Origin: Minisyncoccota bacterium
Lineage (GTDB): Bacteria > Patescibacteriota > Minisyncoccia > Phycocordibacterales > UBA5272
NCBI GenBank assembly: GCA_046350775.1
Contig: JAXLZS010000001.1
Span: forward strand, 545,838-609,837
DNA: 64,000 bases
Reading direction: 5' to 3'
Positions 6,577-37,346 of this stretch are shown piece by piece (within the stretch, counting starts at the first letter, position 1; each line of letters begins with the position of its first letter). The position numbers were made by a program, and so were the translations under genes. Below the pieces are notes generated by a model. That model was given only the letters and a program-made list of their open reading frames with translations. It ran no database searches and had not been told where the DNA came from.

Positions 6577-7770
6577 ATGGCAGATTTTCAAAGAACAAAG
6601 CCACATGTAAATGTGGGAACCATCGGTCACGTAGACCATGGAAAGACAACATTAACAGCTGGAATCCTTAATGTTCTTCACTTAAAGGATCCAAGTATTA
6701 AGATCAAATCAGTCGATGATATCGACAAGGCGCCTGAGGAAAAAGCGCGTGGGATCACAATTTCTCTTTCTCACTCAGAATATGAGACAGAAAAGAGACA
6801 TTATGCTCATATCGACGCTCCAGGACATGCTGACTATATCAAAAACATGATCACAGGTGCGGCTCAGATGGACGGTGCTATCCTCGTGGTAGCTGCTACA
6901 GATGGACCAATGCCACAAACTCGTGAGCACGTTCTTCTTGCAAAGCAAGTTGGTGTTCCAAGATTCGTAGTATTCTTGAACAAGTGTGACATGGTTGATG
7001 ATCAAGATATGATCGACCTAGTAGAGGAAGAAGTAAGAGAGCTTTTGACAAAGAATGGATATGATGGAGCAAATACTCCTGTCATCAGAGGATCTGGTCT
7101 AAAAGCTTCTCAAGCTACAGATCTAAATGATCCTTGGGCACAAAAAATAGTAGAACTCATGGACGCTCTTGATAATTGGATTCCAGAGCCAGTTCGTGAT
7201 TTAGACAAGCCGTTCCTAATGCCTATCGAAGACATCTTCACAATTGAAGGTCGTGGAACTGTGGTCACAGGAAGAATCGAAAGAGGTGTCATCAAATTAA
7301 ATGACGACATTGAAATTGTTGGTCTTGCTCCAACAGCTAAATCTACAGTTACAGGTATCGAAATGTTTAACAAATCACTACCTTCAGGACAAGCTGGTGA
7401 CAACGCCGGACTACTTTTGAGAGGTGTTAAAAAAGAAGATCTTATGAGAGGACAAGTTCTTGCAAAGCCAGGATCAGTAAATCCTCATACAGAATTTGAA
7501 TGTGAAGTATACGTTCTTAAAAAAGAAGAAGGAGGAAGACATACTCCATTCCTAAACGGATACAAACCTCAATTCTACGTACGTACAACTGACGTTACAG
7601 GTGAATGTACATTACCAGGAGGTAGTGAAATGGTTATGCCAGGAGATACTATCAAAGGTATGAATGTAAAGCTTATCGCTCCTGTAGCTCTTGAAGAGCA
7701 AATGCACTTTGCTATCCGTGAAGGAGGTAAAACTGTAGGTGCCGGAGTTGTAACAAAAATCATTGCTTAA
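6577..7770 (+). CDS. tuf: Elongation factor Tu.
   Basis: 397 aa. [20 protein letters not shown]1 motif, [12 protein letters not shown]. Full-length EF-Tu architecture. Confidence 0.97.
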
Positions 7771-7811
7771 TTATAAAAACTAATCGCTCTTTCTAATCAA
7801 GTTATAAATTT

Positions 7812-8252
7812 ATGACAGAAACAAAAAAACCAGCAACAAAAAAAACAGTAGCTAAAAAAGTTGCTACCAAAAAAGCAGTTGCTAAAAAGCCTATCGATAT
7901 AAAGACAGAAGGTGATTTTCCAAAATCTAAAGCTAAAAAAGGAGATGAAAATAAACTTCGAATTTTAGTCAAAGCTTATGAGCCTAAAGTGCTCGACATA
8001 TCTGTCAAACAAATAATTGATACAGCAAAAAGATTTGATGCGGAAATTTTAGGACCAGTTCCTCTTCCAATTGAAATCTCAAAATACACAGTAAACAGAT
8101 CAACATTTGTTTACAAAAATGCTAGAGAGCAATTTGAGATCAGAGTTCACAAAAGACTCATTGATATCATAAATCCAAACCCAAAATTGATCGAAGCTCT
8201 GACAAATTTGTCACTTCCATCAGGTGTAGACATTAATGTCAAAATGGGTTAG
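7812..8252 (+). CDS. rpsJ: 30S ribosomal protein S10 with an N-terminal Lys/Ala-rich extension of about 45 aa.
   Basis: The C-terminal 100 aa match S10 (KLRILVKAYEP...FEIRVHKRLIDI...). The N-terminus is MTETKKPATKKTVAKKVATKKAVAKKPIDIK. Confidence 0.9.
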   Translation: MTETKKPATKKTVAKKVATKKAVAKKPIDIKTEGDFPKSKAKKGDENKLRILVKAYEPKVLDISVKQIIDTAKRFDAEILGPVPLPIEISKYTVNRSTFVYKNAREQFEIRVHKRLIDIINPNPKLIEALTNLSLPSGVDINVKMG

Positions 8253-8360
8253 TATAAGATTCTTAAGATTAAGTTTTTAAGAAAGCAAAATTATTAAAAA
8301 TAAAATAAATCGACCAATGGCTCTCCTCACAAGAGAGAGTTATGTCGTTACTGAAAATAT

Positions 8361-8969
8361 ATGAAATTCATGATTGCCACAAAACAGAATATGACTCAGT
8401 TCTTTGATGATGAAGGAGTGGTGCATCCAGCTACAGTCTTGTCTGCTGGCCCACTTACTGTCACTCAAGTAAAGACCAAAGAAAAAGATGGCTATGAGTC
8501 AGTACAGGTCGCTTCTTTCCCACAAAAGAAAGAAAGAGTCTCAAAATCTGTACTTGGTCACACAGCAGAAGCTTTTAAAGTCATAAAAGAATTTAGAGGA
8601 AATGTTGGTGATTTACAAAAAGGAGCAAGTATCAATATTGATATTCTCCAAGCAGGAGACGTAGTCACATTGTCTGGTATTTCTAAAGGAAAAGGCTTTC
8701 AAGGAGTCGTCAAAAGACATGGCTTCAAAGGAGGCTGGGGACAACATGGACAAAAGCACTCACTTCGCGAGCCAGGATCAATTGGAGGAGGAGGACGTGC
8801 CGGAGGTCGTGTCGTCAAAGGAAAGAAAATGGCCGGAAGAATGGGTTCTGATAGAGTTACCCAAAAGAATGTAAAAGTACTCGATGTCGATGTAGAGCAC
8901 GGACTAATCTTAGTAAAGGGTGCTGTTCCTGGTAAAAGAGGCACAGTTATCGAAATAGTTCAAAAATAA
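8361..8969 (+). CDS. rplC: 50S ribosomal protein L3.
   Basis: MIATKQNMTQFFDDEGVVHPATV...GKGFQGVVKRHGFKGG. The start may be at 8361 or 8370. Confidence 0.9.
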   Translation: MKFMIATKQNMTQFFDDEGVVHPATVLSAGPLTVTQVKTKEKDGYESVQVASFPQKKERVSKSVLGHTAEAFKVIKEFRGNVGDLQKGASINIDILQAGDVVTLSGISKGKGFQGVVKRHGFKGGWGQHGQKHSLREPGSIGGGGRAGGRVVKGKKMAGRMGSDRVTQKNVKVLDVDVEHGLILVKGAVPGKRGTVIEIVQK

Positions 8970-8987
8970 TTTCTGAAATAAAAATAT

Positions 8988-9650
8988 ATGAAAACACAAG
9001 TATACAATCAATCAGGAAAAGCAGTAAAAGAAATTGATCTACCAGAAAATATTTTTGGCTTACCTTTTAATGGAGACTTAGTTTCTCAAGTGCTTTATAT
9101 CCAAAGAGCAAATCAAAGAGCTGGTACAGCTCACACAAAAGATCGTGGCGAAGTGGCTGGTTCAAATCAAAAGCCTTGGCAACAAAAAGGTACTGGTCGC
9201 GCAAGACACGGATCAAAAAGATCTCCAATATGGAGACATGGAGGTGTGACTCATGGACCAAGAAATGAAAAGAGTTACAAAAAAGATCTTCCAAAAAACA
9301 TGAAGACTCAAGCTCTCTTTTCTCTATTATCTGCCAAATTAAAGGATGGAAAAATACTTTTCATCGATGAGATCACAGCTACAACTTCAAAAACTAAAGA
9401 TGCAGTAGCAATAATGAAGAATATTGCAACTGTTAAAAACTTTGAAAATCTAGTTTACAAGAAAAAAGGAAATGTCTATATGACTTTTCCAAAGCTTCTT
9501 GCAAATGAAAAAAGATCATTTAGAAATCTTCCTTATGTCATGGCACATAATATGGAAGATCTAAATCCTAACGATATCGCTAATGCGAGATATCTAGTTA
9601 TTACCAATCCAGAAGCTACTGTCGAGTATCTTAATAGTAAATTAAAATAA
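8988..9650 (+). CDS. rplD: 50S ribosomal protein L4.
   Basis: QKGTGRARHGSKRSPIWRHGGVTHGP motif. Position in the operon. Confidence 0.9.
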   Translation: MKTQVYNQSGKAVKEIDLPENIFGLPFNGDLVSQVLYIQRANQRAGTAHTKDRGEVAGSNQKPWQQKGTGRARHGSKRSPIWRHGGVTHGPRNEKSYKKDLPKNMKTQALFSLLSAKLKDGKILFIDEITATTSKTKDAVAIMKNIATVKNFENLVYKKKGNVYMTFPKLLANEKRSFRNLPYVMAHNMEDLNPNDIANARYLVITNPEATVEYLNSKLK

Positions 9651-36109: not shown

Positions 36110-36131
36110 TTAATAATTAATTTATAAATAT

Positions 36132-36512
36132 ATGTTACAAGCAGGATCAAATGTAAAAATCACAGACAACTCTGGCGCAAAGCTCGGTAGAATTTTCAAA
36201 GTTCTTGGAGGCTCAAAGAGAAGATATGCAAGTATCGGGGATCTTGTTTGTCTATCTATTAAAGTCGCTGACCCTAGAAAGCAAGTCAAAAAGAAAGACG
36301 TGGTTTATGGTATTGTTGTGCGTACTTCAAAAGAATTTCGTAGAAAGGATGGATCCTATATTCGTTTTGATGACAACGCTGTCGTGATAGTAGACAAGAC
36401 CAAAAAGGATCCAAAAGCGAGTCGTGTCTTTGGTCCAATTCCAAAAGAAATCTCAGAAAGTAAAAATGAGAATATTAAAAAGATAGCTACAATGGCCCCA
36501 GAAGTCATCTAA
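36132..36512 (+). CDS. rplN: 50S ribosomal protein L14.
   Basis: MLQAGSNVKITDNSGAKLGRIFKVLGGSKRRYASIGDLV. Confidence 0.92.
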   Translation: MLQAGSNVKITDNSGAKLGRIFKVLGGSKRRYASIGDLVCLSIKVADPRKQVKKKDVVYGIVVRTSKEFRRKDGSYIRFDDNAVVIVDKTKKDPKASRVFGPIPKEISESKNENIKKIATMAPEVI

Positions 36513-36532
36513 TATATTTAAATAATAAATTT

Positions 36533-36748
36533 ATGCAAATCAAAAAAGGAGATAAAGTTATAATATTGACTGGTAAAGACAAAGGTAAATCTGGTACTGT
36601 GTCTAAGTCTATGCCAAAAGAAAACAAAGTCATCGTCGATGGTCTTAATCTTGTAAAACGTCACAAAAAAGCTAGAAAGCAAGGTGAAAAAGGGGTGATA
36701 GTCGAAGTCTCATCTCCTATAAATGCAAGTAATGTCAAAAAGGCATAA
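36533..36748 (+). CDS. rplX: 50S ribosomal protein L24 (short, KOW).
   Basis: MQIKKGDKVIILTGKDKGKSGTV. Confidence 0.85.
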   Translation: MQIKKGDKVIILTGKDKGKSGTVSKSMPKENKVIVDGLNLVKRHKKARKQGEKGVIVEVSSPINASNVKKA

Positions 36749-36779
36749 TAATAAAATATAGAGATTTAATTATAAATAT

Positions 36780-37346
36780 ATGAAAGAAGAATCAAAAAAA
36801 GTAAACTATAAAGTAAAAGCTAAAGTCGCGGAAGCATATGAAGTAATGAAAAAAGATTTTCATTATAAAAATAAATTGCAAGCTCCAAGACTTGTAAAAA
36901 TCTCTGTTGCCGTAGCTACTGGTAGAGCAATGAAGCAAGATAAAAAGAAAAATGAATTTGTGATTGGCAGACTAACAAAGATTGTCGGACAAAGAGCTGT
37001 AGAGAGACAAGCAAAGAAAGCTATAGCTTCTTACAAGACTCGTATCGGCGACAAGATCGGTGTGGCTGTCACACTTCGCGGTCCAAGAATGTATGGATTT
37101 TTAGAGAAACTTTTAAATGTCTCTCTTCCTCGTACAAAAGACTTTCGTGGTATTTCAAAGAATTCAGTTGATCAGATTGGAAATCTTACTTTTGGTATAA
37201 AAGAGCATACTATCTTCCCAGAGATTCGTGATGAAGAACTAAAAGATATTTTTGGTATGGCTATCACAATTGTGACTACAGCTAAAAATAAAGAAGAGGC
37301 TACAAGATTTTTTGAAGTGATTGGTGTCCCATTCAAAAAAGATTAA
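36780..37346 (+). CDS. rplE: 50S ribosomal protein L5.
   Basis: RGPRMYGFLEKLLNVSLPRTKDFRGIS...FGIKEHTIFPEI. Confidence 0.9.
   Translation: MKEESKKVNYKVKAKVAEAYEVMKKDFHYKNKLQAPRLVKISVAVATGRAMKQDKKKNEFVIGRLTKIVGQRAVERQAKKAIASYKTRIGDKIGVAVTLRGPRMYGFLEKLLNVSLPRTKDFRGISKNSVDQIGNLTFGIKEHTIFPEIRDEELKDIFGMAITIVTTAKNKEEATRFFEVIGVPFKKD

Follow-up and report, generated by a model that had tools for sequence, protein, structure and literature searches.

Gene order of the cluster

The S10-spc gene cluster is treated as near-invariant in bacteria, and uncultured bacteria are placed on the tree of life with its genes as syntenic markers. Here we describe a permuted str-S10-spc supercluster, with a gene for a fibre-like protein between two of its blocks, in a 64,000-nt stretch of DNA from a Minisyncoccota bacterium (GenBank assembly GCA_046350775.1, contig JAXLZS010000001.1, positions 545,838 to 609,837 of the forward strand); this whole stretch is called the window below. 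The window has a G+C content of ~33%, and its + strand carries nearly all of the genes. According to Pfam, the cluster reads tuf-S10-L3-L4-L23-L2-S12, followed by the fibre gene, then S14-S8-L6-L18-S5-L15-secY-map-hyp-S7-fusA, seven other genes and finally S19-L22-S3-L16-S17-L14-L24-L5. An earlier note on this DNA, made from the sequence alone, had given the same gene identities and block order, and the four junction intervals that it singled out are true intergenic gaps. None of the canonical adjacencies S12-S7, fusA-tuf, L2-S19 and L5-S14 survives, and the blocks are kept apart by other genes, which take up 4.6 kb and 9.5 kb. For what follows we divide the cluster into five modules, lettered in canonical order (A, S12; B, S7-fusA; C, tuf to L2; D, S19 to L5; E, S14 to map). 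The modules and principal genes, identified by Pfam except where stated, are:

6577-10895, + strand: module C, tuf-rpsJ-rplC-rplD-rplW-rplB, colinear in every relative
6577-7770, + strand: tuf (EF-Tu)
7812-8252, + strand: rpsJ (S10)
8361-8969, + strand: rplC (L3)
8988-9650, + strand: rplD (L4)
9655-9984, + strand: rplW (L23)
10047-10895, + strand: rplB (L2)
10943-11380, + strand: module A, rpsL (S12), moved to follow L2
11525-16015, + strand: fibre-like secreted protein of 1496 residues, variable cargo (Pfam, PDB)
16188-21024, + strand: module E, rpsN-rpsH-rplF-rplR-rpsE-rplO-secY-map, without L30 and adk
16188-16373, + strand: rpsN (S14)
18847-20112, + strand: secY (SecY)
20203-21024, + strand: map (methionine aminopeptidase)
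21118-21531, + strand: hyp137, a 137-residue protein matching no Pfam or NCBIfam domain
21690-24338, + strand: module B, rpsG (S7) and fusA
22194-24338, + strand: fusA (EF-G)
33837-37346, + strand: module D, rpsS-rplV-rpsC-rplP-rpsQ-rplN-rplX-rplE, without L29
33837-34187, + strand: rpsS (S19)

Compared with the canonical str-S10-spc(-alpha) cluster, the window holds the same genes, co-oriented, within 31 kb and in identical order inside the modules, but the order of the modules is permuted, S12 stands apart from S7, and L29, L30 and adk are missing at their positions. The breaks fall inside the S10 operon (L2|S19) and the spc operon (L5|S14) as defined in E. coli, and not at their borders. 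Members of the standard set (S12, S7, EF-G, EF-Tu, S10 to L2, S19 to S17, L14 to L15, SecY) occur in one copy each by Pfam, with the exception of L29 and L30. L29 (rpmC) is gone from between L16 and S17, where the gap measures 54 nt in the window (35801-35854), 42 nt in another member of the same clade (locus L116) and 3-10 nt in two outgroups (L117 and L125). A tblastn search with 48 outgroup L29 sequences found no match anywhere in the 64-kb window. L29 is also absent at about 20 other Paceibacteria loci, and most outgroups carry an L29 of 60-70 residues at this position. To our knowledge, L30 is absent across the Candidate Phyla Radiation (CPR). The secY-map gap (20113-20202) is without adk; outgroups carry a gene of ~190-205 residues there, and the clade members L040 and L042 a gene of 520 or 396 residues. 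Some ribosomal proteins of the window are extended: S10 by a Lys/Ala-rich N-terminal stretch of ~45 residues (7812-7950), S5 by an acidic and Gly/Lys-rich N-terminal stretch of ~70 residues (17753-17960), and S19 by a Lys/Ala-rich C-terminal tail (34090-34187).

Inheritance and origin of the permuted order

The order was compared with that of relatives in two scans, one with the L2 protein against a single genome for each GTDB species, the loci then being annotated with the window proteins, and one with S19 against metagenomes, for the downstream side; together these gave 80 loci from genomes and 80 from metagenomes. A group of 11 species stands apart, with L2 proteins 80-86% identical (the next best reaches 68%), and all 11 carry tuf-S10-L3-L4-L23-L2-S12. 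The adjacency of L2 and S12 is thus found in 11/11 clade species as against 0/81 outgroup loci, and S12 is adjacent to S7 in 18/18 outgroup loci. The two of these whose loci reach far enough, L040 (labelled Candidatus Elulimicrobiales) and L042, run on as S12-S14-S8...secY-x-map-(x)-S7-fusA, with nothing between S12 and S14. From tuf to fusA, the order of the window is repeated on a 612-kb ENA scaffold from another species (L005), whose ribosomal genes share 86-91% DNA identity with those of the window. On the downstream side, two further clade members carry efp upstream of S19 as the window does: L115 reads TraG-efp-S19, and L116 has efp together with homologues of the window's Flg_new lipoprotein and Cys-rich protein (FlgNew, Cys589) and continues S19...L5-recG-xfp-ackA. 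In the nearest outgroups (S19 80-83% identical), L2-S19 is kept in L118 and L125, and S19...L5-(insert)-S14 in L117 and L125.

The window itself is reproduced by more than 10 independent assemblies, colinear with it at 98-100% identity. Four short contigs from ENA and Logan match 10032-11802 at 98-100% and cover L2-S12 and the start of the fibre gene, while contigs that the Joint Genome Institute (JGI) assembled for five samples align colinearly with 6399-44210 at 98-99.8%, differing only in hypervariable parts of the fibre gene and of two surface-protein genes. A check for chimeric junctions had been proposed in the earlier note; misassembly is excluded, as the junctions recur in 11 other species and in independent assemblies from JGI, ENA and Logan.

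We therefore consider it very probable that the order is genuine and reflects a vertically inherited rearrangement of the str-S10-spc supercluster, fixed in one shallow clade of Paceibacteria (Patescibacteria/CPR). The lineage in which it is fixed counts 12 species or more, and relative to the class the order is derived. The synteny comparison called for by the earlier note consequently cuts both ways: since the whole lineage shares the order, its reading as a one-off event or a chimera is removed, yet the arrangement is still not canonical when set against the rest of the Paceibacteria, and the splitting of the cluster into non-canonical blocks is borne out by both the Pfam order and the outgroups. 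A full-text search of the literature on Parcubacteria, Paceibacteria and Patescibacteria found no paper that describes this gene order. In L125 (40-2119), the nearest outgroup with canonical order, tuf directly follows S7 with no fusA between them, and EF-G has thus moved independently in a neighbouring lineage.

The junctions that are broken in the window are loose in the class at large. L2 and S19 are adjacent in 20 outgroup Paceibacteria, separated by an insertion of 0.5-6.3 kb in 29 and broken apart in 8. For L5|S14 the corresponding numbers are 24, 12 and 5, and for fusA|tuf 5, 15 and 0; an extra gene is common at S7|fusA too. These soft points mark off the same modules as those rearranged in the window (S12-S7-fusA, tuf...L2, S19...L5 and S14...map) and do not coincide with the operon borders of E. 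coli. The earlier note had stressed that this is one of the most conserved gene arrays of bacteria; the array is indeed permuted, but set in its context the event is less exceptional, as 37 of the 57 outgroup species (65%) already have an insertion or break at L2|S19. Loss of the alpha operon after map was considered as a further feature of the clade and was ruled out, since alpha-operon genes are absent after map in outgroup Paceibacteria as well, where ndk or other genes follow.

In Gammaproteobacteria and Bacilli, a few genes enter a junction first and full disconnection comes later (Brandis, PMC8046335). The window and its relatives resemble the rearrangements of these groups (Brandis 2021, PMC8046335; Brandis et al. 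2019, PMC6735719) in this two-stage pattern and in the inheritance of the new neighbourhoods. They differ from the catalogued cases in belonging to another phylum, in breaking within operons as defined in E. coli, in having modules that are permuted yet close together, and in the lack of a transposable element at the junctions. The order of the window thus carries to an extreme a looseness often met with in the class, and comparable rearrangements are documented in other phyla.

As for how the order arose, the ancestor of the class would have had S12-S7-fusA | tuf-S10-L3-L4-L23-L2 | S19...L5 | S14...map; the boundaries fusA|tuf, L2|S19 and L5|S14 are already soft in this class, and in the ancestor of the clade the modules would have been permuted to tuf...L2 - S12 - S14...map - S7-fusA - (other genes) - S19...L5. 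By rearrangement distance, the change from A-B-C-D-E to C-A-E-B-D is impossible in one transposition and possible in two, by way of either of two intermediates, tuf..L2-S12-S7-fusA-S19..L5-S14..map or S12-S14..map-S7-fusA-tuf..L2-S19..L5. We infer that two block transpositions suffice for the observed order; separate relocation of S12 and of S7-fusA, as the earlier note had it, is therefore not required.

Several points weigh against this account. Neither of the two-step intermediates turns up at any of the 160 loci from genomes and metagenomes, which leaves the path an unproven inference; the events could be more numerous, or could have consisted of segmental duplication and asymmetric loss. 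The S19 block after fusA, with its neighbours, is documented for the window species only: L115, a short contig that ends within S3, and L116 stop short of fusA on their other side, and the loci of L005, L040 and L042 end before the S19 block (in L005 a different gene follows fusA, and the locus stops before any S19 block). The clade, moreover, is delimited by protein identity rather than by phylogeny, and the depositors' taxon labels are inconsistent.

In place of direct transposition, the cluster may have undergone a segmental duplication, after which the duplicates were lost asymmetrically (the SNAP model); we regard this alternative as unlikely. Such a route would spare the cell the fitness cost of abrupt operon breakage (Brandis, PMC8046335), and L042, besides its S7-fusA after map, has an EF-G-like C-terminal fragment (L042 164-976) directly upstream of tuf, which is the canonical position of fusA. 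The tuf of L042 is also the most divergent in the clade (76% as against 86-93% for the others), suggesting that this is the deepest member. However, the additional copy is 57-66% identical to every EF-G examined, those of the clade included; this rules out a recent duplication, and the copy may be a paralogue of unrelated origin. Being equally distant from all EF-Gs, the fragment is uninformative as a relic of duplication and was set aside. In addition, no other duplicated ribosomal gene occurs at any locus of the clade.

Genes between the modules

The fibre protein contains collagen-like triplets, repeats of 51 nt, a GDSL/SGNH esterase domain and a C-terminal Peptidase_S74 domain (residues 1213-1270), and starts with a signal or anchor sequence. 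It is one of three paralogous S74 fibre genes in the window (186-914, 1020-4574 and 11525-16015), which share segments of 300 nt that are 98.5-99% identical between copies and tandem 51-nt repeats encoding 17-residue units of the type SNFxG..AG..AT. This pattern suggests cassette-like gene conversion, and it is in these genes that assemblies of different strains disagree. In another species (L009) the C-terminal module of the fibre is 99% identical while the ribosomal genes are ~85% identical, which points to recombination or to an exchange of surface-protein modules. Phage tail fibres and tailspikes with a C-terminal S74 chaperone share with the window protein the S74 domain, the SGNH esterase and the collagen-like repeats. 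The window gene differs from them in having no other phage genes nearby, several chromosomal paralogues and a conserved slot in a cellular genome. Among its neighbours, which are ribosomal and surface-protein genes, there is no capsid, terminase, portal or tail gene of a prophage, and the only phage-type match near it is Phage_connect_2, below the cutoff at E = 0.0034.

The position of the fibre gene between S12 and S14 is as the earlier note described it, but the gene is a variable occupant; that it is highly expressed, as was also claimed, is not supported. In the clade the S12|S14 slot holds S74 fibre genes in four species, more than 7 kb of other genes in three (L037, L039 and L045) and nothing in two (L040 and L042); the occupant in L005 is a different S74 protein, of 1715 residues. 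After the permutation, the S12|S14 junction would thus have become a variable slot, taking nothing, an S74-type fibre or several other genes. The association of fibres with ribosomal modules may be recurrent, as L098 (Tobar13m-G46, an unrelated member of the Paceibacteria) has S74 fibre genes at both S7|fusA (772-3273) and L2|S19 (10764-14870).

The interval between fusA and S19 (9.5 kb) holds seven genes:

24407-25387: membrane protein, no domain match
25493-26209: Tyr-rich secreted protein, no domain match
26294-29080: VirD4/TraG-like ATPase (DUF8128; Pfam, NCBIfam)
29083-29448: DUF559 protein (Pfam)
29561-30151, minus strand: efp (EF-P; Pfam)
30467-31765: Flg_new-repeat lipoprotein (Pfam)
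31904-33673: Cys-rich DUF5874 protein (Pfam)

The same genes are found in the JGI strains, with two hypervariable surface proteins among them: between strains that are 98-99.8% identical, 30875-32294 (the Flg_new lipoprotein and the Cys-rich DUF5874 protein) is, besides the fibre gene, the only part of 6.4-44.2 kb that does not align. The TraG-like ATPase is a weak match (TraG-D_C, 28.7 bits; SXT_TraD far below cutoff) with no virB4 nearby, and orphan VirD4 homologues are common in Patescibacteria (PMC12102498). An inverted repeat with arms of 44 nt lies between the convergent DUF559 and efp genes (29468-29557); it is probably a bidirectional terminator, and an overlapping open reading frame of 68 residues (29445-29651) is probably spurious.

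The earlier note had taken the fibre gene and this interval for cargo invading the cluster. The corresponding explanation, in which foreign mobile islands split an otherwise canonical cluster, draws on the variation of the S12|S14 slot between species and strains, on the fibre genes at two junctions of the unrelated L098, on the recurrence of DUF559 endonuclease-domain genes beside ribosomal blocks (L014, L065) and on the near-identity of the L009 fibre cassette. Insertions, however, leave the order of modules unchanged, and C-A-E-B-D needs transpositions; moreover, L040 and L042 are permuted with no cargo between S12 and S14, so the permutation is independent of the fibre. No integrase, transposase or recombinase is found in the Pfam and NCBIfam results for the intervening genes, and there are no flanking repeats of at least 40 nt, att-like or other, no tRNA in the region and no step in G+C, which stays at 0.31-0.38 throughout. 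Among relatives, presence is variable for the S12|S14 slot and the two surface-protein genes, but the core gene efp keeps its place upstream of S19 in both L115 and L116, and the TraG-like ATPase is found again in L115. We thus judge the explanation by mobile islands quite improbable. The fusA-S19 interval is ordinary chromosome, not a mobile element, and the word "invaded" overstates what are a variable fibre slot and an interval with a core gene.

That pieces of Paceibacteria sequence were wrongly joined by assembly, possibly through the near-identical 300-nt segments of the fibre paralogues (340-646 and 15408-15714; 1902-2234 and 12514-12847, 98.5-99% identical), has a negligible probability: such a join may be present in the public JGI contig L012 (1999-3585), where an open reading frame upstream of the S14 leader fuses NADH-dehydrogenase antiporter domains to a Peptidase_S74 C-terminus and is probably a chimera through the fibre C-terminal cassette, but in the window the repeats sit within fibre genes and away from the ribosomal-protein junctions, each junction recurs in independent assemblies made with different assemblers from different samples, and L2-S12-S14 and map-S7 are kept in species with a different fibre (L005) or none (L040, L042), so that misassembly via the fibre repeats is ruled out.

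Predicted transcription units and leader RNAs

In the vertically inherited, permuted cluster, the modules have acquired or kept signals of their own. The predicted promoters, terminators and leaders are:

6406-6434, + strand: promoter of the tuf unit, TTGCAT-N14-TGA-TAATAT (extended -10), kept in L035-L041, L043 and L045, its motif class also that of the 16S promoter at 53380
6435-6576, + strand: tuf leader, with an element at 6509-6546, GTCCAATATTATTTCRCGAATAGATGTAGAAATAACAA, invariant apart from one R (A/G) position
10903-10931, + strand: S12 promoter-like element, TTGCAA-N17-TATTAT, in the 47-nt L2-S12 spacer (promoter scan)
11387-11427, + strand: S12 terminator, 17-bp stem and U-run (fold -19.9 kcal/mol, z = -7.3)
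11450-11479, + strand: possible own promoter of the fibre gene
16025-16053, + strand: promoter of the S14 unit, TTGCAA-N14-TGT-TAATAT, conserved, beginning 10 nt past the fibre stop codon
16054-16187, + strand: rpsN leader, folding as a hairpin of three helices whose invariant internal loop is GUAAUCA / UUGAUAUUCU (fold z = -5.7)
21043-21071, + strand: hyp137 promoter-like element
21548-21576, + strand: hyp137 terminator (fold)
21579-21607, + strand: S7-fusA promoter, TTGCTA-N17-TATAAT, kept in L005, L009, L040 and L042
21608-21689, + strand: rpsG leader, with the invariant motif GGUGCUAGUA-CCAG..CUGG-GAAA at 21635-21662, conserved only in the clade
24344-24379, + strand: fusA terminator, 15-bp stem (z = -6.6)
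33700-33736, + strand: terminator of the Cys-rich gene, overlapping the S19-unit promoter by 2 nt
33735-33763, + strand: promoter of the S19 unit, TTGACT-N14-TGC-TAATAT, kept in L115 and L116
37368-37402, + strand: L5 terminator (hairpin and U-run fold)

Each of the three blocks of the earlier note has the promoter-like element that was claimed for it, at 6406-6434, 16025-16053 and 33735-33763; these elements are conserved across species, and all three (tuf, S14 and S19) have a TGn extended -10. This motif class occurs 12 times in the window, where 1.3 would be expected, and 11/12 are intergenic and upstream of genes, among them the 16S rRNA gene and two tRNAs. Strong terminators between the blocks, also claimed, are present after S12, fusA, the Cys-rich gene and L5, but the fold scan gave none between the fibre gene and the S14 promoter. 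The hyp137 terminator and the S7 promoter divide what had been described as the second block into two transcription units. The hyp137 protein is restricted to the clade, with homologues in L005 (57%) and L009 (76%) and none in L042. In the 41-49-nt L2-S12 spacer, 12/13 clade sequences keep TTGCAA-N17-TAT(A/T)(A/T)T, and canonical outgroups have a matching element immediately before S12. The clade element is probably the old promoter of the str operon, and its similarity to the outgroup element suggests that S12 moved together with it. The predicted promoters of the tuf, S14, S7 and S19 units are strong and rRNA-like, and each of these four units also has a leader specific to the clade.

Taken together, these predicted signals would make about five transcription units instead of one read-through array: tuf...L2 (with S12 also having its own promoter); the fibre gene, possibly reading onward; S14...map-hyp137; S7-fusA; and S19...L5. 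The 16S rRNA gene itself lies at 53615-55137, with its own promoter TTGCAT...TGCTAATAT at 53380, and is followed by four protein-coding genes and tRNA-Ile (57860-57933). No 23S rRNA gene is found in the remaining 9 kb of the window, so the 16S gene belongs to an unlinked rRNA operon. This and the missing L29, L30 and adk, taken with the related genomes, assign the organism to the Patescibacteria, class Paceibacteria (Parcubacteria).

Of the leaders, that of rpsN has the clearest structure. In the six species compared, pairing holds for 97% of cells, and compensatory changes occur in 10/26 pairs, as against 4.7 ± 1.5 in shuffles (0/500 reach the observed number) and 0-2 in slid controls. There is thus a conserved RNA structure, backed by covariation, at the 5' end of an operon that encodes S8 (rpsN-rpsH), as would be looked for in an S8-type leader, and its covariance model matches only the upstream regions of S14 in the clade. 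Since the loop GUAAUCA / UUGAUAUU resembles the S8 site in helix 21 of 16S rRNA, we propose the rpsN leader as a candidate S8-binding autoregulatory site, probably replacing a lost control site near L5. It is comparable to the S8 site on the spc mRNA of E. coli and the S7 site on its str mRNA (PMC3616713) in that a 5' or intercistronic RNA resembling an rRNA site stands beside the operon of the regulator. It differs from the E. coli S8 site in lying upstream of rpsN and not at rplE, in being outside Rfam and restricted to the clade, and in being predicted from the sequence.

The rpsG leader shares UGCUAGUA, then a hairpin and then GAAAUA with the h43 region of 16S rRNA (54948-54990), and may be a mimic of the S7 site there, a weaker idea than that of S8 at rpsN. 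Its alignment places the true start of rpsG at the ATG at 21690, the open reading frame having been called from 21636. No covariation is seen in this leader because its sequence is invariant, and its structure remains a guess. The exact motif of the tuf leader is found in clade members only; as a structured RNA this leader was rejected, a single-sequence fold being no better than those of shuffled sequences. Searched with the whole window at the gathering threshold and with the four leaders at E-values up to 1, Rfam gave no family for any leader, only noise below the threshold.

A broader proposal, which we put forward tentatively and hold to be somewhat doubtful, is that breakage of the supercluster forced the feedback control of ribosomal proteins to be rewired, with the clade-specific rpsN, rpsG and tuf leaders as autoregulatory RNAs of recent origin by which the separated modules regained control of stoichiometry, and that Paceibacteria run the cluster as four to five separately promoted modules whose junctions are recurrent landing pads for surface fibres. 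Here, too, some evidence tells against us: the transcription units are predicted from sequence only, the mimicry of S8 and S7 sites rests on short motifs, of which the 8-mer shared with 16S rRNA is not significant alone, and the organism's own h21 reads GAAAC and not GAUAU. Nevertheless, the clade-specific leaders as re-evolved feedback sites are the most promising lead.

The permuted cluster is not a new kind of biology, given the comparable rearrangements documented in other phyla. With a whole clade permuted and about two-thirds of related species carrying extra genes at L2|S19, selection for contiguity of the cluster appears to be relaxed in these epibionts with tiny genomes. The boundaries of transcription units in Paceibacteria would accordingly differ from the E. 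coli model. The finding also carries a warning, in that gene order in this cluster is unsuitable as a check for misassembly in CPR bins. The clade, finally, serves as a natural experiment in which the re-acquisition of promoters and feedback leaders by a broken operon may be followed.

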